Source of the DNA: Ferruginibacter sp.
GTDB lineage: Bacteria; Bacteroidota; Bacteroidia; Chitinophagales; Chitinophagaceae
Assembly: GCA_019638525.1 (NCBI GenBank)
Contig: JAHBTO010000008.1
Coordinates: 21,535-85,534 of the forward strand
Direction: 5' to 3'
Length of the DNA stretch: 64,000 nucleotides
The notes below the pieces were generated by a model, which was not told the DNA's origin, did no database searches, and was given only the letters and a program-made list of their open reading frames with translations. This document shows, piece after piece, positions 20,689 through 60,876 of the stretch (position 1 is its first letter; each line of letters starts with the position of its first letter). A program made the position numbers and the translations under genes.

Positions 20689-21795
20689 ATGAAGCAGTTT
20701 ATCATTTTTGTTAAAAAAGAATTTTATCACATTTTCCGTGACAGGAAATCGCTGCTTATCATTTTCCTGATGCCCATTGTGCAAATCATTCTTTTTGGTT
20801 TTGCCTTAACCAATGAAATAAAAAACAGCAATATTGCAGTTTTGGATAATTCAAAAGACGAAGCCACTGTAAAAATCATACAAAGATTAGATGCAAGCCG
20901 TTATTTTGAAGTAAATACTTATTTGCATTCGCAGGCTGATATTGAAAACATATTTAAATCGGGCAAAGTAAGGATGGTAGTGGTTTTCCCGCCAAACTTT
21001 TATCAATCATTATTGCATAGTAATAAAGCTCAAATTCAATTACTGGCCGATGCATCTGACCCCAATACTGCCACTACTATTACTCAATACGCTACAAATA
21101 TCATTAACGATTACCAACAGGAACTAAACGGGCAAACTAATATCCCGTACCAAATACAACCTCAATTGCGGATGTTATATAATCCGCAGTTAAAAGGCAC
21201 GTACAATTTTGTGCCGGGTGTTATGACCATGATTTTAGTTTTGATAGCCGCTATGATGACTTCGGTTGCTATTGTGAGAGAAAAAGAAATCAATACCATG
21301 GAAGTGATTTTGGTTTCGCCGCTAAAGCCATTGTTGTTTATTGTAAGCAAAGCCATTCCGTATATATTTTTATCGCTGGTTAATTTAATCACCATTTTAA
21401 TTGTAAGCGTTAGCATTTTAGATGTGCCGGTAAACGGGAATCTTTTTCTGCTGATGGCCGAGTCGTTGTTGTTTATTATTACATCGGTATCATTGGGTTT
21501 AATGATTTCGAATTTTACAAAAACACAGCAGGAGGCACAAATGTTTTCGTTGATGTCTTTATTGTTGCCCACACTGTTGCTGGGTGGTTTTATGTTTCCT
21601 ATCGAAAGTATGCCCTGGCCATTACAGGCAGTATCAAATATTGTTCCTTCAAAATGGTTTTATTTAATTGTAAAAGATGTGATGATAAAAGGGCTTGGTT
21701 TTTCGCAGGTGTGGAAAGAATCGCTGGTGCTGGTTGCCATGTCATTGGTATTACTTTTCATCAGCTTTAAAAAATTTAAAACAAGGCTTGCATGA
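20689..21795 (+). CDS. ABC-2 type transporter permease (YbhS/YbhR-like)
   Basis: 368 aa with an N-terminal TM helix, a large extracytoplasmic loop, then 5 TM helices. Its stop overlaps the start of the next permease (ATGA). Confidence 0.88.
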   Translation: MKQFIIFVKKEFYHIFRDRKSLLIIFLMPIVQIILFGFALTNEIKNSNIAVLDNSKDEATVKIIQRLDASRYFEVNTYLHSQADIENIFKSGKVRMVVVFPPNFYQSLLHSNKAQIQLLADASDPNTATTITQYATNIINDYQQELNGQTNIPYQIQPQLRMLYNPQLKGTYNFVPGVMTMILVLIAAMMTSVAIVREKEINTMEVILVSPLKPLLFIVSKAIPYIFLSLVNLITILIVSVSILDVPVNGNLFLLMAESLLFIITSVSLGLMISNFTKTQQEAQMFSLMSLLLPTLLLGGFMFPIESMPWPLQAVSNIVPSKWFYLIVKDVMIKGLGFSQVWKESLVLVAMSLVLLFISFKKFKTRLA

Positions 21796-22910
21796 AAAAA
21801 CTGCTGGTGATACTGGAAAAAGAGTTCAGGCAGGTTTTCAGAAACCCGTCTATCTACAGGATGGTACTTATTATGCCGGTGATACAGTTGCTTGTGTTTC
21901 CATTTGCAGCCAATTACGAAGTGAAGAATGTAAAGCTTTCTATTGTAGATCATGATCATTCTTCCTATTCTCAAAAATTCATCAGTAAAATTTCAGGTTC
22001 GGGATATTTTAAACTTACCAGTTACCAACCTTCTTACATGCAGGCGATGAAGTCAATAGAGTCGGGCGCTGCAGATCTTATTATAGAAATTCCTAAAGGT
22101 TTTGAAAAAGATCTTGTAAAAAATAATGCAGCTTCCATGCTGATAGCGGTAAACGCAGTAAATGGCGTGCAGGCCAACCTGGGCGGCGCTTATGCAGCAT
22201 CCATCATCAGGGATTTTAATGCAGGCATAAGAGCCAACTGGATTCAACCTCCTGCCTTTAATGCACAACCGGCCATTGAGGTTACATCATCTAATTGGTA
22301 TAACCCAACAATGGATTATAAGATTTTTATGGTGCCGGCAATTTTGGTTACACTGCTCACCATGATTGGCAGCATCATGGCTGCATTAAATATTGTGCAC
22401 GAAAAAGAAATAGGCACCATTGAACAAATCAATGTATCACCCATCAGCAAACTGCAGTTTATTTTAGGTAAACTAATTCCATTTTGGATATTGGGTTTGG
22501 TTACACTTACCCTGGGATTACTGGTATCGTGGCTGGTATATGGTATTGTTCCGGTTGGCAGCCTGGGTTTAATTTATGTGTTTGGTATGGTGTTCCTGTT
22601 TACATTGTTGGGAGTTGGCTTACTCATTTCTACATTTGCCGAAACGCAAACGCAGGCCACATTTGTAAGTTTTTTTGTTATTATGCTGTTTATGTTGCTG
22701 GGTGGTTTATATACACCAATAGAAAGTATGCCCGGTTGGGCCAAACTCATCACAAAAGTAAACCCAGTGGCTTATTTTATTGAAGTGATACGGATGATTA
22801 TTTTAAAAGGAAGTGGTTTTGCAGATGTGAAAGTTCAGTTTTTTTCGGTGCTGGCGCTAGGTGTTTTTTTTAATGCATGGGCTGTGTTTAATTATCGCAA
22901 ACGTTCATAA
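21792..22910 (+). CDS. ABC-2 type transporter permease (second subunit)
   Basis: Paralog of the preceding gene with the same topology and a 4-nt overlap, indicating translational coupling. Confidence 0.88.
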   Translation: MKKLLVILEKEFRQVFRNPSIYRMVLIMPVIQLLVFPFAANYEVKNVKLSIVDHDHSSYSQKFISKISGSGYFKLTSYQPSYMQAMKSIESGAADLIIEIPKGFEKDLVKNNAASMLIAVNAVNGVQANLGGAYAASIIRDFNAGIRANWIQPPAFNAQPAIEVTSSNWYNPTMDYKIFMVPAILVTLLTMIGSIMAALNIVHEKEIGTIEQINVSPISKLQFILGKLIPFWILGLVTLTLGLLVSWLVYGIVPVGSLGLIYVFGMVFLFTLLGVGLLISTFAETQTQATFVSFFVIMLFMLLGGLYTPIESMPGWAKLITKVNPVAYFIEVIRMIILKGSGFADVKVQFFSVLALGVFFNAWAVFNYRKRS

Positions 22911-25514: not shown

Positions 25515-26747
25515 CTACATACCCATTTTCTTTTTCAAATTGGCATCAATAGCATCTAAAAATTCTTCGGTATATAAATAATGTTCGCCGTGGTTTACTT
25601 TATTACCATGTATGCAAACAGCCAGGTCTTTTGTCATCTTGCCGCTTTCTACCGTTTCAACGCAAACAGTTTCCAGTGCGTGGCAAAATTCAATTAATGG
25701 TTGGTTGTTATCTAATTTACCTCTAAAGGCCAGGCCCCTCGTCCATGCAAAAATTGAAGCAATAGGATTGGTAGATGTTGGCCGCCCCTGCTGATGCTCC
25801 CTGTAGTGGCGTGTTACAGTACCGTGTGCTGCTTCGGCTTCCATGGTTTTACCATCGGGTGTAACCAAAACAGAAGTCATTAAACCCAGCGATCCAAATC
25901 CCTGGGCTACTGTATCGCTCTGTACATCGCCATCATAATTTTTACAGGCCCAAACAAAATTGCCGTTCCATTTTAAGGCGCTTGCTACCATATCATCAAT
26001 CAGGCGGTGTTCGTACACAATACCTGCCTCGGTAAATTTTTGTTTAAATTCTGTTTGATAAATGTTTTCAAAAATATCTTTAAAACGACCGTCGTATTTT
26101 TTAAGAATAGTGTTTTTGGTAGATAGGTACAAAGGCCATCCTTTGCTTAAAGCCATATTAAAGCAACTGCGTGCAAAACCAATGATGCTTTCGTCGGTAT
26201 TGTACATGCTCATGGCTACACCATCGCCTTTAAAATTATACACTTCAAAAACCTGTGGCTCACCACCGCCTTCGGGTGTAAAAGTCATGGTTAATTTTCC
26301 TTTGCCTTTTATCACCGTATCAGTAGCCCGGTATTGATCGCCAAAAGCATGGCGGCCAACAATGATTGGCGCTGTCCAGTTATTTACTAACCGGGGCACA
26401 TTTTGCATAACTATGGGTTCACGAAAAACAGTGCCGTCTAAAATATTACGTATGGTGCCGTTTGGCGATTTCCACATTTGTTTAAGGTTAAATTCTTTCA
26501 CCCTTGCTTCATCAGGCGTAATGGTAGCGCACTTAATGCCTACGCCACAAGCTTTAATTGCATTGGCCGCATCAATAGTTACCTGGTCGTTGGTTGCATC
26601 CCTGTGTTCAATACCCAAATCAAAATACTGGATATTCACATCCAAGTACGGAAGTATCAGTTTGTCTTTAATAAATTTCCAGATGATACGTGTCATCTCA
26701 TCGCCATCTAATTCAACTACGGGGTTTGTTACTTTAATCTTTGCCAT
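25515..26747 (-). CDS. NADP-dependent isocitrate dehydrogenase, eukaryote-like homodimeric subfamily II
   Basis: 410 aa. [36 protein letters not shown]...[43 protein letters not shown] is the characteristic IDH1/IDH2-type sequence. Confidence 0.92.
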
Positions 26748-26769: not shown

Positions 26770-26888
26770 AAAATCAAAAATCAAAAATCAAAAGTCAAAA
26801 GTCAAAAATCAACATTCATAATTCACAATTCACAATTCACCATTCATAATTCAAAATTCAACATTCATCACCCAACATTCAAAATTCA
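26770..26888. repeat. 17-unit degenerate heptanucleotide tandem array (nnAnTCA)
   Basis: aaaatca x3, aaagtca x2, aaaatca, acattca, taattca, caattca x2, ccattca, taattca, aaattca, acattca, tcaccca, acattca, aaattca. It fills the whole icd-idh spacer. The last TCA is the complement of the icd TGA stop. Confidence 0.9.
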
Positions 26889-28196
26889 AAGACTACTGCT
26901 TTTCTTCAACTGCACTTCTCCGGTTACCAGGCCCATGTTTTCGATAAGGGTATTGCCAAACTCCGAAGTTTTGAGTAGGGTGGCTCCGCTCATGAGATTA
27001 TAAAAATCTATGGTTACGGTTTTTCGCATAATGGTAGCTTGTAATGCAGATGTTATCAAATCAGCCGCTTCTTTCCAGCCAATATATTCCAACATCATGC
27101 ATCCGCTTAAAATTACCGAAGAAGGATTCATACTATCGGTACCGGCAAATTTTGGCGCTGTGCCATGGGTAGCTTCAAACACGGCATAACCTGTTTTGTA
27201 ATTGATGTTGGCGCCGGGGGCTATGCCAATACCGCCCACTTCGGCAGCAAGTGCATCCGAAATATAATCGCCATTAAGGTTAAGGGTGGCCACCACCGAA
27301 AAATCTTTTGGGGCAATCAGTATCTGCTGTAAAAAATTATCGGCAATAATATCTTTTACTAAAAGTTTTCCTTCGTGTAATGCTTTGCGTTGTATTTCGT
27401 TGGCGTGGGCTTCGCCCTGTTCTTTTTTCAGTTCATCCCATTCGTCCCAGGTAAAAGTTTTACCGGCAAATTCCTGTCGTGCCACTTCGTATCCCCATTT
27501 TTTAAAACCACCTTCGGTGTATTTCATAATATTGCCCTTATGCACCAATGTTACCGAGGGCAGGTTGTTTTTTAATGCATGTTCAATAGCCGCTCTCACA
27601 AGCCTTTTACTGCCTTCCGACGAAACAGGTTTTACCCCATAACTTGAGCTGCCCGGGAAACGAATATTTTTTACACCCATTTCCTCCACCAAAAATTTTT
27701 CAAACTTATTTGCTTCTGCCGAACCGGCCTGCCATTCAATACCTGCATAAATATCTTCGGTGTTTTCCCTAAAAATTATCATGTCCACATTTTCGGGATG
27801 AGTTACCGGCGATGGTACACCTTTAAACCATTTTACCGGCCTTACGCAGGCAAACAAATCAAGATCTTGCCGCAAAGCCACATTTAAAGAGCGTATGCCG
27901 CCTCCAATAGGTGTAGTTAACGGGCCTTTAATAGAAACAATAAATTCTTTGGCTGTTTGTAAGGTTTCGGCCGGTAGCCAATTGCCGGTAAGTTTAAATG
28001 CTTTTTCGCCTGCCAGCATTTCTCTCCATTCAATTTTACGGGTGCCGTTGTAAGCCTTTTCCACTGCAGCATCAAATACTTTTTGAGCCACCTGCCATAT
28101 TTCGGGGCCAATACCATCGCCTTCAATAAAAGGTATAATAGGATTACCAGGTACACTCAGCACACCGTTGCTACCCATAGTAATTTTTTCTGCCAT
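26886..28196 (-). CDS. icd: NADP-dependent isocitrate dehydrogenase, prokaryotic subfamily I (E. coli Icd type)
   Basis: 436 aa. Matching segments are [62 protein letters not shown], and an end of ..[10 protein letters not shown] plus 15 extra residues. Confidence 0.92.
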
Positions 28197-28240
28197 AATA
28201 TTTTTTATTTTGGAGCCGGGCTTTTTGAATCATTATTGAA

Positions 28241-28267
28241 CTTCATTGGCGTCGCACTCTTGTACAT
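28241..28267 (-). promoter_or_regulatory. conserved leader motif copy 1 (gene sense: ATGTACAAGAGTGCGACGCCAATGAAG) in the icd 5' leader
   Basis: This 25-nt core is identical at 60066-90 and differs by one base at 48194-218. All copies have the same orientation relative to the downstream gene. GCCCGG follows 19 nt later, then an A-run. Confidence 0.6.
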
Positions 28268-28296
28268 CTATATCAATACTCAGCTTAATGAAGCCG

Positions 28297-28304
28297 CAAA
28301 TTTA
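28297..28304 (-). promoter_or_regulatory. -7 promoter box TAAATTTG for icd
   Basis: It matches TAnnTTTG on the minus strand, about 100 nt upstream of the icd ATG. The conserved motif therefore falls inside the transcribed leader. Confidence 0.4.
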
Positions 28305-28357
28305 CATAAACTAAGGCGTAGTTTAAAGTGAAGAACAGGGTAAATTTGTATTTACAT

Positions 28358-48132: not shown

Positions 48133-48139
48133 TAATTTG
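48133..48139 (+). promoter_or_regulatory. approximate -7 box (TAATTTG) for the FKBP gene
   Basis: GGTAATTTGCGC resembles the TAAATTTGCGG and TATATTTGCGG boxes of the other two motif-bearing leaders. It is an imperfect match to TAnnTTTG. Confidence 0.3.
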
Positions 48140-48191
48140 CGCCCGCTTTAACGAATTGCACTTTTTTTATTAATGGCTCAATAGCGATATA

Positions 48192-48218
48192 ATGTACAAG
48201 AGTGCGACGCCACTGAAG
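48192..48218 (+). promoter_or_regulatory. conserved leader motif copy 2 (ATGTACAAGAGTGCGACGCCACTGAAG) in the FKBP-isomerase leader
   Basis: It has one substitution (A to C) relative to the other two copies. GCCGGG (48237-42) follows after 18 nt, then an A-run. Confidence 0.6.
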
Positions 48219-48296
48219 CTACATGGCAGTGATGCTGCCGGGTTAAAAAATATTTTAAATCGCCAACCCTTTAGGGTTTGGCAAACAAAAAAAATT

Positions 48297-48725
48297 ATGA
48301 AACAGGTAAAAGCAGGAGATGTAGTGAAAGTGCATTACACAGGTAAATTAGTTAATGGCGAACAATTTGATTCATCGGTAGGAAGGGAACCACTTGAATT
48401 TACTGTTGGCGCCGGGCAAATGATAAAAGGATTTGATGCAGCATTGCCGGGAATGATTATTGGCGATAAAAAAACCATTAACATTGCGCCCGAAGATGCT
48501 TATGGCCCAAGAAGCGAAGAAGCCATCATTGATTTTCCGAAAGCAAACGTGCCTGCCGATATGAAGCTGGAGCCGGGCATGCCATTAACTTTAAGCAACC
48601 AGGCCGGGCAACCGGTACCGGTAGTAGTGGTTGAAGTGAAGGATGATGTGATTGTATTGGATGCTAATCATTTTTTAGCAGGGCAAGAGTTGGTGTTTGA
48701 TATTGAATTGGTGGAGATAGCCTAA
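48297..48725 (+). CDS. FKBP-type peptidyl-prolyl cis-trans isomerase (SlyD-like, with IF insertion)
   Basis: MKQVKAGDVVKVHYTGKLVNGEQFDSS..PLEFTVGAGQMIKGFDAALPGM is a canonical FKBP N-terminus. The 35 upstream codons in the track ORF (from 48192) are leader sequence containing the conserved motif. Confidence 0.88.
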   Translation: MKQVKAGDVVKVHYTGKLVNGEQFDSSVGREPLEFTVGAGQMIKGFDAALPGMIIGDKKTINIAPEDAYGPRSEEAIIDFPKANVPADMKLEPGMPLTLSNQAGQPVPVVVVEVKDDVIVLDANHFLAGQELVFDIELVEIA

Positions 48726-57470: not shown

Positions 57471-58358
57471 TTATTTAAATCGCTCACTCACTACAAGCTC
57501 TTTGCTGCCGGCAGTATAAGTATAAAAACCTTCGCCGCTTTTTACGCCTAGTTTTCCGGCCAATACCATATTTACTAACAACGGGCAGGCTGCATATTTA
57601 GGATTGCCAAAACCATCCTGCAAAACTTTTAATATGCTTAAACAAACATCAAGGCCAATAAAATCAGCCAGTTGCAGGGGGCCCATCGGGTGTGCCATTC
57701 CAAGTTTCATTACTGTATCAATTTCTTCTACTCCGGCTACGCCTTCGTACAAACTGTAAATGGCTTCATTAATCATGGGCATTAAAATACGGTTGGCAAT
57801 AAAGCCGGGGTAATCATTTACGGCGCAGGGTATTTTACCAAGCTGCTTGCTTAATTCAACAATTGTTGCGGTAACTTCTTTTTTTGTTGCATAGCCATTT
57901 ATTATTTCCACCAGTTTCATAACAGGCACCGGGTTCATAAAATGCATGCCAATAACTAACCCCGGCCTTTTGGTTACCGCTGCTATTTTTGTAATGGAAA
58001 TTGATGAAGTGTTGGTTGCCAGTATGCATCCCGCCGGTGCATACATATCCATTTGTTCAAAGATGGATAATTTAAGATCTACATTTTCGGAAGCAGCTTC
58101 TACAACAAGTTCTGCATTTTTTACACCTTCGGCAATGATTGATGTAACGGTAATATTAGCCAGTGTTGCTTTTTTCTGCTCTTCGGTAATTGTTCCTTTT
58201 AAAAGTTGCCTGTCTAAATTTTTATTAATTGTATCCATAGCCCTTTGCAACTGCGATGGATTTACATCAACTAAATTAACTGTAAAACCGTTTTGTGCAA
58301 ATACGTGAGCTATTCCATTTCCCATGGTGCCGGCGCCTATAACTGAAATATTTTTCAT
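57471..58358 (-). CDS. hbd: 3-hydroxybutyryl-CoA / 3-hydroxyacyl-CoA dehydrogenase
   Basis: ISVIGAGTMGNGIAHVFAQNGFTVNLVD (Rossmann), HFMNPVPVMKLVEI, GFIANRILMPMINEA. Confidence 0.92.
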   Translation of the reverse strand: MKNISVIGAGTMGNGIAHVFAQNGFTVNLVDVNPSQLQRAMDTINKNLDRQLLKGTITEEQKKATLANITVTSIIAEGVKNAELVVEAASENVDLKLSIFEQMDMYAPAGCILATNTSSISITKIAAVTKRPGLVIGMHFMNPVPVMKLVEIINGYATKKEVTATIVELSKQLGKIPCAVNDYPGFIANRILMPMINEAIYSLYEGVAGVEEIDTVMKLGMAHPMGPLQLADFIGLDVCLSILKVLQDGFGNPKYAACPLLVNMVLAGKLGVKSGEGFYTYTAGSKELVVSERFK

Positions 58359-58783: not shown

Positions 58784-58825
58784 CCAATTATCAATTATAC
58801 ATTATACATTATCAATTATACATTA
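58784..58825. repeat. 6-unit heptanucleotide array (TnnATTA)
   Basis: ccaatta|tcaatta|tacatta|tacatta|tcaatta|tacatta. The last unit contains the complement of the acd TAA stop (58823-25). Confidence 0.85.
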
Positions 58826-60007
58826 TTTAAACGCATTCATCCCCGTAACATCCATCCCAGTAATTAATAAATGTATATCATGCGTTCCTTCGTATGTAAT
58901 TACACTCTCCAGGTTCATCATGTGGCGCATCACGGGGTATTCGCCTGTAATGCCCATGCCGCCAAGCATTTGACGGGCAGCCCTGCAAATATTGGTAGCT
59001 GTTTCGCAGGCATTTCTTTTAGCCATGCTTACCTGTTGAGGCGTTACCTTTCCTTCGTTCATCAAAACACCCAGCCGCCAGTTTAATAATTGCGCCTTGG
59101 TTATTTCGGTAACCATCTCGGCCAATTTTTTTTGTTGCAACTGGAAAGCGCCAATTGGTTTTCCAAACTGTATTCTTTCTTTGCTGTATTGTAAAGCTGT
59201 ATCATAACAATCCATGGCAGCGCCAATAGCGCCCCAGGCAATACCATATCTTGCTTTTGTTAAACATCCCAGCGGCCCTTTCAATCCTTTAATGTTTGGA
59301 AAAATATTTTCTTTAGGCACTTTTACATTATCAAACACCAGCTCACCGGTGGCGCTTGCACGCAGGCTCCATTTGCCATGCGTAGTTGGTGTGCTAAAAC
59401 CTTCCATGCCTCTTTCTACAATCATTCCTTTTATTTCGCCGGCTTCGTCTTTAGCCCATACTACAGCCAGCTGGCTATATGGTGCGTTGCTAATCCACAT
59501 TTTAGCCCCGTTTAAAATAACATGGTCGCCGGCATCTTTAATATTGCTGAGCATACTGCTGGGGTCGCTGCCATGATTAGGTTCTGTTAATCCAAAACAA
59601 CCCAACCACTCGCCACTTGCAAGCTTGGGCAAATATTTTTTTCGTTGCTCTTCGCTACCGTACTGGTAAATAGGATACATCACCAGGCTGCCCTGCACGC
59701 TGGCTGTTGACCGTACACCACTATCGCCACGTTCCAGTTCCTGCATCATCAAACCATAACTAATGTAATCCAACCCGCCGCCGCCATATTGCTCAGGAAT
59801 GGTAGGGCCAAAGCAACCAAGTTCGCCCATTTGCTTTACAATCTGTTGAGGAAATTCGGCACGCTGTGCATAGTCTTCTATGATTGGTGAAATTTCTCTC
59901 TTTACATAATTCCTCACACTCTCTCTTATAAGTTTATGTTCATCGGTAAGCAATTCATCAACATTAAAATAATCGGGCGATTGAAAATTATCCGTTTTAG
60001 CAGCCAT
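58823..60007 (-). CDS. acyl-CoA dehydrogenase, glutaryl-CoA-dehydrogenase-like
   Basis: 394 aa. GCFGLTEPNHGSDPSSM closely resembles the GCDH active-site region. The C-terminus has YEGTHDIH. Confidence 0.92.
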   Translation of the reverse strand: MAAKTDNFQSPDYFNVDELLTDEHKLIRESVRNYVKREISPIIEDYAQRAEFPQQIVKQMGELGCFGPTIPEQYGGGGLDYISYGLMMQELERGDSGVRSTASVQGSLVMYPIYQYGSEEQRKKYLPKLASGEWLGCFGLTEPNHGSDPSSMLSNIKDAGDHVILNGAKMWISNAPYSQLAVVWAKDEAGEIKGMIVERGMEGFSTPTTHGKWSLRASATGELVFDNVKVPKENIFPNIKGLKGPLGCLTKARYGIAWGAIGAAMDCYDTALQYSKERIQFGKPIGAFQLQQKKLAEMVTEITKAQLLNWRLGVLMNEGKVTPQQVSMAKRNACETATNICRAARQMLGGMGITGEYPVMRHMMNLESVITYEGTHDIHLLITGMDVTGMNAFK

Positions 60008-60065
60008 CGTAATTTATTTTTTTAATTTTTATTTTTTGTTGCCCGGCAGTTGTGCAATTATTTAG

Positions 60066-60090
60066 CTTCATTGGCGTCGCACTCTTGTAC
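60066..60090 (-). promoter_or_regulatory. conserved leader motif copy 3 (gene sense GTACAAGAGTGCGACGCCAATGAAG) in the acd-hbd leader
   Basis: It is identical to the icd copy over 25 nt. GCCGGG follows after 18 nt, then an A-run. It lies 59-83 nt upstream of the acd ATG. Confidence 0.6.
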
Positions 60091-60142
60091 CGGTAATCTT
60101 TATTCAGCATTACTTAAGCCACTTAGGTGGCAATCTTAACCG

Positions 60143-60150
60143 CAAATATA
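60143..60150 (-). promoter_or_regulatory. -7 promoter box TATATTTG for acd
   Basis: It matches TAnnTTTG on the minus strand, followed by CGG as in the icd promoter (TAAATTTGCGG vs TATATTTGCGG). Confidence 0.4.
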
Positions 60151-60324: not shown

Positions 60325-60876
60325 TTGGAATTAACAGTATTGCCACACAAAGATGAGTTGATTGAACGATGCCTGCGTGGCGATACACTGGGTTATAAGG
60401 AATTATATAACCGGTACTCAAAATCTATGTACAACACCTGCCTGCGCATACTTAATAATATTTCAGAAGCAGAAGATGTATTGCAGGAAAGTTTTATTGA
60501 AGCATTTAAAAACCTTGAGCGTTTTGAGTATCGTACAAGTTTTGGTGGTTGGTTGAAACAAATTTGTATCTATCGTTCTATTAACCAGCTAAAAAAACGA
60601 AAGATAAACTGGGTAGATATAGACCAGGCCACTAATTATGATGTGGCAGATGAACAACCTATAGATGAAAGGGAAATACATTTACAAGTGGATAAGGTTA
60701 AAAATGCAATTATGAAGTTGCCGGATGGTTACCGTACCGTATTGAACCTGTACTTACTGGAAGGATATGATCATGAAGAGATATCAGAAATTTTACAGGT
60801 AGCGCCATCTACCACCCGAACACAATACATACGTGCCAGGCAAAAATTATTACACCATCTAAAAGAAGAATCATGA
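60325..60876 (+). CDS. RNA polymerase sigma-70 factor, ECF subfamily
   Basis: Region 2: LYNRYSKSMYNTCLRILNNISEAEDVLQESFIEAF. Region 4: YRTVLNLYLLEGYDHEEISEILQVAPSTTRTQYIRARQKL. There is no in-frame ATG near the N-terminus, so the start is TTG at 60325 or 60340. Confidence 0.88.
   Translation: MELTVLPHKDELIERCLRGDTLGYKELYNRYSKSMYNTCLRILNNISEAEDVLQESFIEAFKNLERFEYRTSFGGWLKQICIYRSINQLKKRKINWVDIDQATNYDVADEQPIDEREIHLQVDKVKNAIMKLPDGYRTVLNLYLLEGYDHEEISEILQVAPSTTRTQYIRARQKLLHHLKEES

Follow-up and report, generated by a model that had tools for sequence, protein, structure and literature searches.

The 25-base motif that recurs ahead of icd, acd-hbd and an FKBP-type isomerase gene in the window (the whole 64-kb stretch of DNA analyzed here) is the conserved core of a dispersed repeat, and not a dedicated leader signal for three genes. 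It is best read, with somewhat better than even confidence, as the constrained core of an undescribed interspersed repeat in the Ferruginibacter/Segetibacter/Lacibacter part of the Chitinophagaceae, among Ferruginibacter-like bacteria of soil and water. The element is non-coding, lacks a stable fold, occurs in many copies per genome and is gained or lost as one block, and its A-run end abuts a gene end whatever the direction of that gene. Proteobacteria and Firmicutes have well-known small interspersed repeats, which in Bacteroidota are, to our knowledge, hardly described. The traits of the present one are unusual, as it is polar and non-palindromic with an A-run end, and its position coincides exactly with the A-rich, unstructured region that Bacteroidota mRNAs need ahead of the start codon. 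The repeat is not described in Rfam or in the literature covered by a full-text search.

The motif reads GTACAAGAGTGCGACGCCA(A/C)TGAAG, and the pattern GTACAAGAGTGCGACGCCAMTGAAG has exactly three matches in the window (Table 1), with a single substitution among them, A or C at position 20. None of 100 dinucleotide-preserving shuffles of the window yields the 25-base motif. In all three copies the sense strand is that of the next gene, whose ATG lies downstream. The spacing from the core to GCCCGG or GCCGGG is 19, 18 and 18 nt, an A-run follows, and boxes of the TAnnTTTG type are found 5′ of the copies, the one before the FKBP copy being weaker. The first-pass annotation had described these near-identical copies together with their common orientation, box, spacing and A-run, and all of this is confirmed. 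It had also called the flanking sequence otherwise unrelated, which does not hold, since all three copies match one 84-position whole-element profile (E 1e-15 to 2e-17); this profile finds no fourth copy in the window. The string GATATAnATG, ascribed to two of the copies, also has to be corrected, as the icd copy has GATATAGATG at this point and the FKBP copy has GATATAATG. Each copy has orthologous counterparts elsewhere, in L042, L120 and further icd loci for icd, in L072 for FKBP and in L117 for acd. The window copies lie between a -7-type box and a start codon and, to judge from the sequence, are probably transcribed as leader.

Table 1. Positions of the three element copies, their parts and neighboring features in the window.
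Feature	Position	Strand	Basis or remark
Element copy 1 (icd 5′ UTR)	28201..28284	-	profile match 28286-28206, E 1.2e-15
Copy 1, left arm	28284-28266	-	
Copy 1, core	28265-28241	-	pattern match
Copy 1, variable right arm	28240-28222	-	
Copy 1, GCCCGGCTCC	28221-28212	-	
Copy 1, A-run	28211-28201	-	
-7-type promoter box TAAATTTG (icd)	28297..28304	-	sequence; 12 nt 5′ of element start
icd coding sequence	26886..28196	-	Pfam Iso_dh, E 2e-90; ATG 28196-28194
Element copy 2 (FKBP 5′ UTR)	48176..48250	+	profile match 48173-48253, E 2e-17
Copy 2, left arm	48176-48193	+	
Copy 2, core (C variant)	48194-48218	+	pattern match
Copy 2, right arm	48219-48236	+	
Copy 2, GCCGGG	48237-48242	+	
Copy 2, A-run	48245-48250	+	
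Weaker box TAATTTG, 5′ of copy 2	48133-48139		
FKBP-type isomerase coding sequence	48297..48725	+	Pfam FKBP_C
Element copy 3 (acd 5′ UTR)	60025..60108	-	profile match 60111-60032, E 5e-17
Copy 3, left arm	60108-60091	-	
Copy 3, core	60090-60066	-	pattern match
Copy 3, right arm	60065-60048	-	
Copy 3, GCCGGG	60047-60042	-	A-rich tail after
-7-type box TATATTTG, upstream of acd copy	60143..60150	-	sequence
Acyl-CoA dehydrogenase (acd) coding sequence	58823..60007	-	Pfam Acyl-CoA_dh_N, _M, _1
hbd, 3′ of acd	57471..58358	-	Pfam 3HCDH (3-hydroxyacyl-CoA dehydrogenase)
Empty site	21792..21795	+	ORFs 20689-21795 and 21792-22910 overlap by ATGA

The three loci have some features of their own. The true start of the FKBP gene is the ATG at 48297, and gene calls in L200-L209 give a protein of 142 aa. 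An in-frame ATG at 48192 opens a mechanical ORF that runs through the element into FKBP and gives 177 aa instead of 142; by such an internal in-frame ATG, which lengthens the FKBP ORF by 35 codons, the element can mislead annotation. The FKBP locus is identical in GCA_018268155.1 contig JAFDXC010000087.1 and in nine metagenome contigs, and among 10 contigs from the same strain as the window this copy shows zero polymorphism. Between the element A-run and the FKBP start codon there is a hairpin, GCCAACCCTTTAGGGTTTGGC, at 48262-48282 (+), with no T-run after it. At the icd locus, two Iso_dh family genes stand in tandem (25515-26747 and 26886-28196, both -), and the element is found only in the leader of the upstream icd (436 aa). 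The acd copy occupies the intergenic region between acd and a divergent ECF sigma factor gene (60427-60876, +).

The repeat extends well beyond this window. With each species represented by a single genome, a scan finds the 21 bases at the centre of the core at no fewer than 119 loci in at least 75 species genomes. Among the matches listed, all genomes belong to the Chitinophagaceae (Ferruginibacter, Segetibacter, Lacibacter and further relatives), and the isolate genomes of Ferruginibacter paludis CECT 8366 and Ferruginibacter sp. SUN002 carry the element. Copy number per genome reaches at least 8 among the matches listed, with 3 copies within this 64-kb window alone, and the 4 kb on either side of 80 icd loci yielded no further copy.

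A common architecture of ~84 columns is shared by 121 aligned copies (among the matches listed), and the element is ~85 bp long, or ~100 bp in one subfamily. Its order along the strand is an A-rich junction, left arm, core, right arm, GCCNGG, usually CTC, and an A-run of 7–9. The left arm has the consensus GYTSAATAAAGATAtAnT, in alignment form G(C/T)T(C/G)AATAAAGATATAnT, and the core has the consensus GTACAAGAGTGCGACGCCAATGAAG. The right arm opens with (C/T)TnAATA(G/A)A, which repeats the left-arm unit (cTnAATAgA...), and a variable stretch then places GC(C/T)NGG 19–21 nt from the core in the aligned copies among the matches listed. The identity of this internal direct repeat is 0.52, compared to 0.28 in shuffled sequence, and no co-variation of its two units within a copy is found. 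One subfamily has an additional 5′ unit, TTCGCTTYGATAAAA. The diverged subfamilies A and C keep the layout with different cores, such as GTACAAGTGAGTGACACAACGATG and GAACGGAGCGTCGCCAATGAAG. Among the matches listed, the arms are 0.59 identical between copies within a genome and 0.51 between genomes. Copies that are old (arms 59% alike within a genome) and have kept their cores intact explain the pattern of three copies in the window.

Two further arrangements were observed in the collected loci. Back-to-back divergent element pairs occur in L012 (6040-6201), L043, L085 (3668-3921) and L092 (349-575); the L012 pair consists of a canonical copy and a subfamily-A copy, and in L085 and L092 each copy of the pair is directed at one gene of a divergent gene pair. 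A second repeat family, CCCC-TTTA-GGGG-AT(A/G)-GGGG(C)TTTT, combines one C-run with two alternative G-runs and looks like a terminator with two possible pairings. It has 24 instances at 20 loci, often beside the element (e.g., L047 ~5949 (-), L039 ~252 (-) and L099 ~1391 (-)), and none in the window.

The scan loci owe their selection to the exact core sequence, which makes the invariance of the core circular there, and the icd set alone is unbiased. This icd set consists of 80 icd orthologues from metagenomes that were gathered by protein similarity with the motif ignored. Among 17 copies at the icd locus, whose choice did not depend on the motif, pairwise identity averages 0.90 in the core, 0.61 in the left arm, 0.55 in the right arm and 0.46 in the upstream 60 nt, compared to 0.49 at icd third codon positions and 0.86 at first and second positions. 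The nucleotide-level constraint that had been proposed from three copies is thus upheld, and the core is conserved about as well as icd first and second codon positions, over a range of at least 75 species. Within the unbiased set, conservation is highest in the block made of G followed by TACAAGAGTGCGACGCC. Purely selfish old copies are expected to decay evenly, yet the core of resident copies evolves 5-fold more slowly, which points to a function at the level of the host.

Some copies (L121, L128, L129, L132/133, L140/141, L023 and L037) carry an 18–50-nt hairpin in place of the central CGAC, and these variants still keep GTACAAGAGTG and GCCAATGAA on either side. Half-cores kept around a hairpin are easier to reconcile with recognition of a single strand than of a duplex. 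Palindromes of the form TCCCGA-N-TCGGGA were noted within the core at L023 ~3404, at L037 ~1202 and in L121 (icd upstream), and the same sequence is also the anticodon arm of tRNA-Lys in L064.

The hairpin variants bear on the idea that the core is a double-stranded DNA site spread by a repeat, either as the site of a nucleoid or regulatory protein or as the target of an RNA-guided binder. A linear, non-palindromic, intergenic motif of 18–25 bp that works in either orientation would fit recognition by base pairing or by a large protein, and the block that is most conserved in the unbiased set would suit such a site. In a dCas12f-sigmaE version of this idea, the G of GTAC would serve as adjacent motif and the next 17 bases as target, and the start would lie ~46 bp downstream, at GCCGGG just before the A-run; counted in alignment columns, 46 bp from that G does land at GCCGGG. 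A matching guide of the dCas12f/TnpB kind would end in TACAAGAGTGCGACGC. It has been established that dCas12f-sigmaE systems use a 5′-G adjacent motif, a guide of 14–16 nt and a start site 46 bp downstream, and that they have at most ~7 targets per genome, mostly upstream of susCD and with no conserved flanks (PMC13472631). Unlike those systems, the present repeat has many copies with conserved arms. Moreover, in 45% of the listed copies such a start would send transcripts into the 3′ end of a gene running toward them, a guide RNA locus is not among the core matches listed, all of which carry arms, and the conservation of half-cores despite a 50-bp hairpin between them would hardly be tolerable for a duplex site. 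A duplex site of any kind is therefore doubtful, and a dCas12f-sigmaE target as such is not supported, given the lack of orientation bias and of any arm-less core among the matches listed.

Presence and absence at orthologous sites indicate how the element comes and goes. Among close icd lineages, that is, those with an icd at least 81% identical and a readable upstream region (n = 48), the element is present upstream of icd in ~21 and absent from 27. Filled sites (L134, L197, L130 and L155) and empty ones (L127, L135 and L142) have near-identical flanks within one clade, and what the empty sites are missing is precisely the segment that runs from GTTCAAT to GGCTCC, together with As. Empty sites read TAAATTTGCcaTTCCAAAAAAAtattATG, and filled sites read TAAATTTGCgtTTCCAAAAA, then the block GTTCAAT...GGCTC, then AAAAAAAAtaacacATG. 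The insertion site lies ~10 nt past the -7 box and before the ATG, so that the entire element falls within the icd 5′ UTR of filled genomes; the box is kept in icd loci with and without the element, and at filled sites the element's own tail rebuilds the A-rich stretch before the ATG. Left-arm variants track the phylogeny of the icd locus, which means that the icd copies descend vertically. Other loci are polymorphic as well. Between the orthologues of the two overlapping window genes at the empty site of Table 1, L096 has an antisense element copy, as found by flank search and alignment, and a subfamily-C copy in L047 is missing from its orthologue L016. With no target-site duplication above chance, precise deletion between the two A-runs would account equally well for the icd polymorphism.

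In L148 and L154, another palindromic insert, GGTCTGACGTCCTCGTCTGA...TCAGACGAGGGCGTCAGACC, stands in the 5′ UTR of icd where other lineages have the element, and small repeats seem to gather in this short leader. In L195 and L197, the upstream flank is 90–92% identical to a clade whose icd is 88% identical to that of the window, with their own icd just ~68–70% identical; this jump in flank identity suggests a breakpoint at the element, due either to recombination or to assembly, and the element may cause breakpoints of either kind. Metagenome assemblies may join contigs at repeats, and together with L195 and L197 this would be what speaks for chance, an assembly artefact or a plain decaying, unconstrained repeat as the source of the pattern. 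Such an explanation is hardly credible, however, in view of the shuffles, of the two isolates that carry the element and of a core 90% identical compared to 49% at synonymous sites.

The position of the copies relative to genes decides how the leader location is to be understood. A total of 133 copies were classified with mechanical ORF calls, with ORFs of at least 150 aa as the stricter call. Where the neighbor is callable, the gene on the A-run side is co-oriented with the element in 63 copies and opposed in 52 (among the matches listed). With the stricter call, these numbers are 52 and 44 (p = 0.48, among the matches listed). The flanks are arranged in tandem in 40 and 41 cases, divergently in 19 and convergently in 8 (among the matches listed), roughly as expected for random orientation in intergenic DNA, and the replication strand, judged by GC skew, shows merely the weak bias expected from gene orientation. 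Among the matches listed, the A-run end lies at a median of 33–44 nt from the neighboring gene, and the other end at ~100 nt. The A-run directly adjoins the stop codon of a convergent gene in no fewer than 14 opposed copies, and a strong terminator hairpin with the complement of the A-run as its U-tract accompanies 13% of opposed copies compared to 2% of co-oriented ones (among the matches listed).

These counts have to be set against the proposal of a dedicated cis-regulatory 5′ leader, in which the core within the mRNA would dock an sRNA or an RNA-binding protein and co-regulate icd, acd-hbd, FKBP and further housekeeping genes, with oppositely oriented copies as by-products. All three window copies and about half of the listed copies lie 0–60 nt before a co-oriented ATG, the genes downstream recur across species (icd, acd, thiolase, FKBP, LeuRS, EF-G-like, PSP1-like and upp), the core is constrained in the icd leader, and co-oriented copies are preceded by TAnnTT[TC]G boxes more often than opposed ones (15/62 compared to 3/54, among the matches listed), all of which would suit a leader. 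However, an orientation bias is absent, and the core is also intact in opposed copies, many of which follow closely on a terminator and have no promoter box ahead of them. In addition, about half of the close icd lineages lack the element, neither structure nor covariation is seen, and the downstream genes share no common pathway. A dedicated leader is accordingly unlikely, and a leader-specific element was rejected on the lack of consistent co-oriented placement in either count. The leader location given in the first-pass annotation thus stands for the three window copies and falls as a specificity, as there is no orientation bias among the copies listed. An absence of bias for 5′ leaders or orientation, named there as what would mark a plain dispersed repeat, is what the 52 co-oriented and 44 opposed copies show. 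Among the candidates offered there, a domesticated repeat comes closest to the result.

The same annotation had considered an RNA element, and neither secondary structure nor covariation bears this out; it had also judged a classical dimeric operator unlikely for this non-palindromic motif and recognized no described riboswitch or leader family in it, and both judgements were borne out. Rfam 15 gives 0 matches at the gathering threshold over the whole window and chance-level matches alone (E 3–7) in 28150-28350. The top mutual-information pairs are not Watson-Crick, and the hairpins GAAG/GCCNGG and GUAC/GUGC and a small post-core hairpin were each rejected for want of support. Folding energies have z scores of -0.4 forward and 0.07 reverse, with z ~0 in sub-regions and an empty consensus fold, and with no excess folding energy on either strand a palindromic repeat of the REP/ERIC/Correia type was rejected. 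An upstream ORF or leader peptide (MK... from ATGAAG) was rejected as well, because the ATG is CTG, GTG or TTG in 28/121 listed copies (23%) and the distance from the core to GCCNGG varies among 19, 20 and 21 nt in the listed copies, which breaks the frame.

It is very improbable that each copy is a small independent RNA gene of an sRNA family with a conserved seed. The fixed unit length and polarity would agree with this, as would a terminator-like hairpin and T-run after some copies (e.g., L047, L016 and L089). However, no terminator stands at a fixed distance and no stable structure is found, the element at the icd locus lies inside an mRNA leader, 3′ of the gene's own -7 box, and the boxes upstream of opposed copies (3/54, among the matches listed) are estimated to be at about chance frequency.

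The interspersed-repeat reading raises the question of how such an element would move, and several tests bear on this. The longest end-to-end inverted match averages 4.19 nt compared to 4.21 nt in shuffles, so terminal inverted repeats are not apparent. Target-site duplication reaches z 0.9, with 5 matches of at least 7 nt observed and 5.7 expected from shuffled pairings; individual flank duplications in L100 (9 nt) and L054 (8 nt) are suggestive, and old target duplications could have decayed. A classical MITE was rejected, as neither terminal inverted repeats nor target duplication exceed chance. In the 1.47 Mb examined, half-elements are never more than 50 nt apart and no gene lies between them, so no autonomous long version is seen, and no mobilizing gene or autonomous parent was found. 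Viral contigs give 0 matches, and a plasmid collection chance matches only. The sense strand of the core resembles a tRNA 3′ end, GUGCGAC-G-CCA, which suggests the idea of a primer-binding site; there is no tRNA in the window, and none of the 5 tRNAs compared has a matching acceptor stem.

Taken as an interspersed repeat, the element is or was probably non-autonomously mobile and would land in A/T tracts, namely the A-rich sequence ahead of start codons in Bacteroidota and the T-tract that follows stop codons and terminators. Landing in such tracts would explain why the window copies stand just ahead of ATGs. The icd, FKBP and acd copies may then be carried passively in 5′ UTRs, where they would supply A-rich pre-start sequence, and would be tolerated there because they rebuild the A-rich, unstructured region before the start. 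Selection would keep the core as a linear recognition site for a trans factor, putatively either the enzyme that mobilizes the element or a protein or RNA of the host that has taken over the site, and recognition of single-stranded nucleic acid is favored since both half-cores are conserved where an 18–50-nt hairpin has replaced CGAC. Two conceivable routes of insertion are an IS200/IS605-like single-strand mechanism and copying through RNA, and the element shows some, though not all, of the traits that define each group. Should the core dock a protein or RNA, the repeat would have spread that site into the UTRs of many genes of central metabolism and translation. A bolder version, and a long shot, is a portable module co-opted by the host whose core is base-paired in trans, either as an A-tailed element with SINE-like spread by way of an RNA copy or as a dispersed target array for an RNA-guided DNA binder or transcription factor of the dCas12f/TnpB kind. 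If true, dozens of housekeeping genes would be wired to one factor.

Among known systems, Correia/NEMIS elements of Neisseria and ERIC/IRU elements of enterobacteria are likewise non-coding, with lengths of 100–150 bp and tens to hundreds of copies. Like the present element, they are intergenic, lie in either orientation beside genes, are co-transcribed into UTRs, and show presence or absence at orthologous sites and conservation across species. They differ in being long imperfect palindromes with terminal inverted repeats, Correia also having a TA duplication, whereas the present element has no inverted repeats or hairpin potential, a fixed polarity and an A-run tail.

The IS200/IS605-derived PATEs and the REP/RAYT systems resemble the element in their lack of terminal inverted repeats and target duplication, in orientation-specific insertion beside a short target and in precise loss. 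Recognition of single-stranded DNA, as in these systems, would also tolerate hairpin insertions. However, PATEs and REPs have subterminal or REP hairpins that are bound by a Y1 (HUH) transposase, and canonical copies of the present element are hairpin-free, hairpins being confined to the core centre of variant copies.

The targets of dCas12f-sigmaE (Hoffmann et al. 2026, PMC13472631) share with the element their occurrence in Bacteroidota and a linear, conserved, G-initial site upstream of genes, and the start predicted 46 bp further downstream would immediately precede the A-rich leader. These targets are few per genome, without conserved flanks and gene-directed (PMC13472631), in contrast to the many copies, conserved arms and lack of orientation bias seen here. 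Rfam riboswitches and leader RNAs resemble the window copies in 5′ UTR position and high sequence conservation, and differ in that the element gives no match (at the gathering threshold or at E <= 10) and has no conserved helices or covariation.

Eukaryotic SINE-type retroposons are also short, non-coding and polar, with an A-run end, no inverted repeats, A-rich targets and As on both sides. Unlike them, the element has no detected target duplications, a fixed A-run length, and no known internal promoter or partner reverse transcriptase, and we know of no bacterial precedent for retroposons of this type. The lack of inverted repeats, target duplication and a long version sets the element apart from classical MITEs and from the palindromic repeats of the REP/ERIC/Correia type. 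What any account has to explain is therefore its polarity, its A-run tail and the As on both junctions, and these features fit insertion into A/T tracts.
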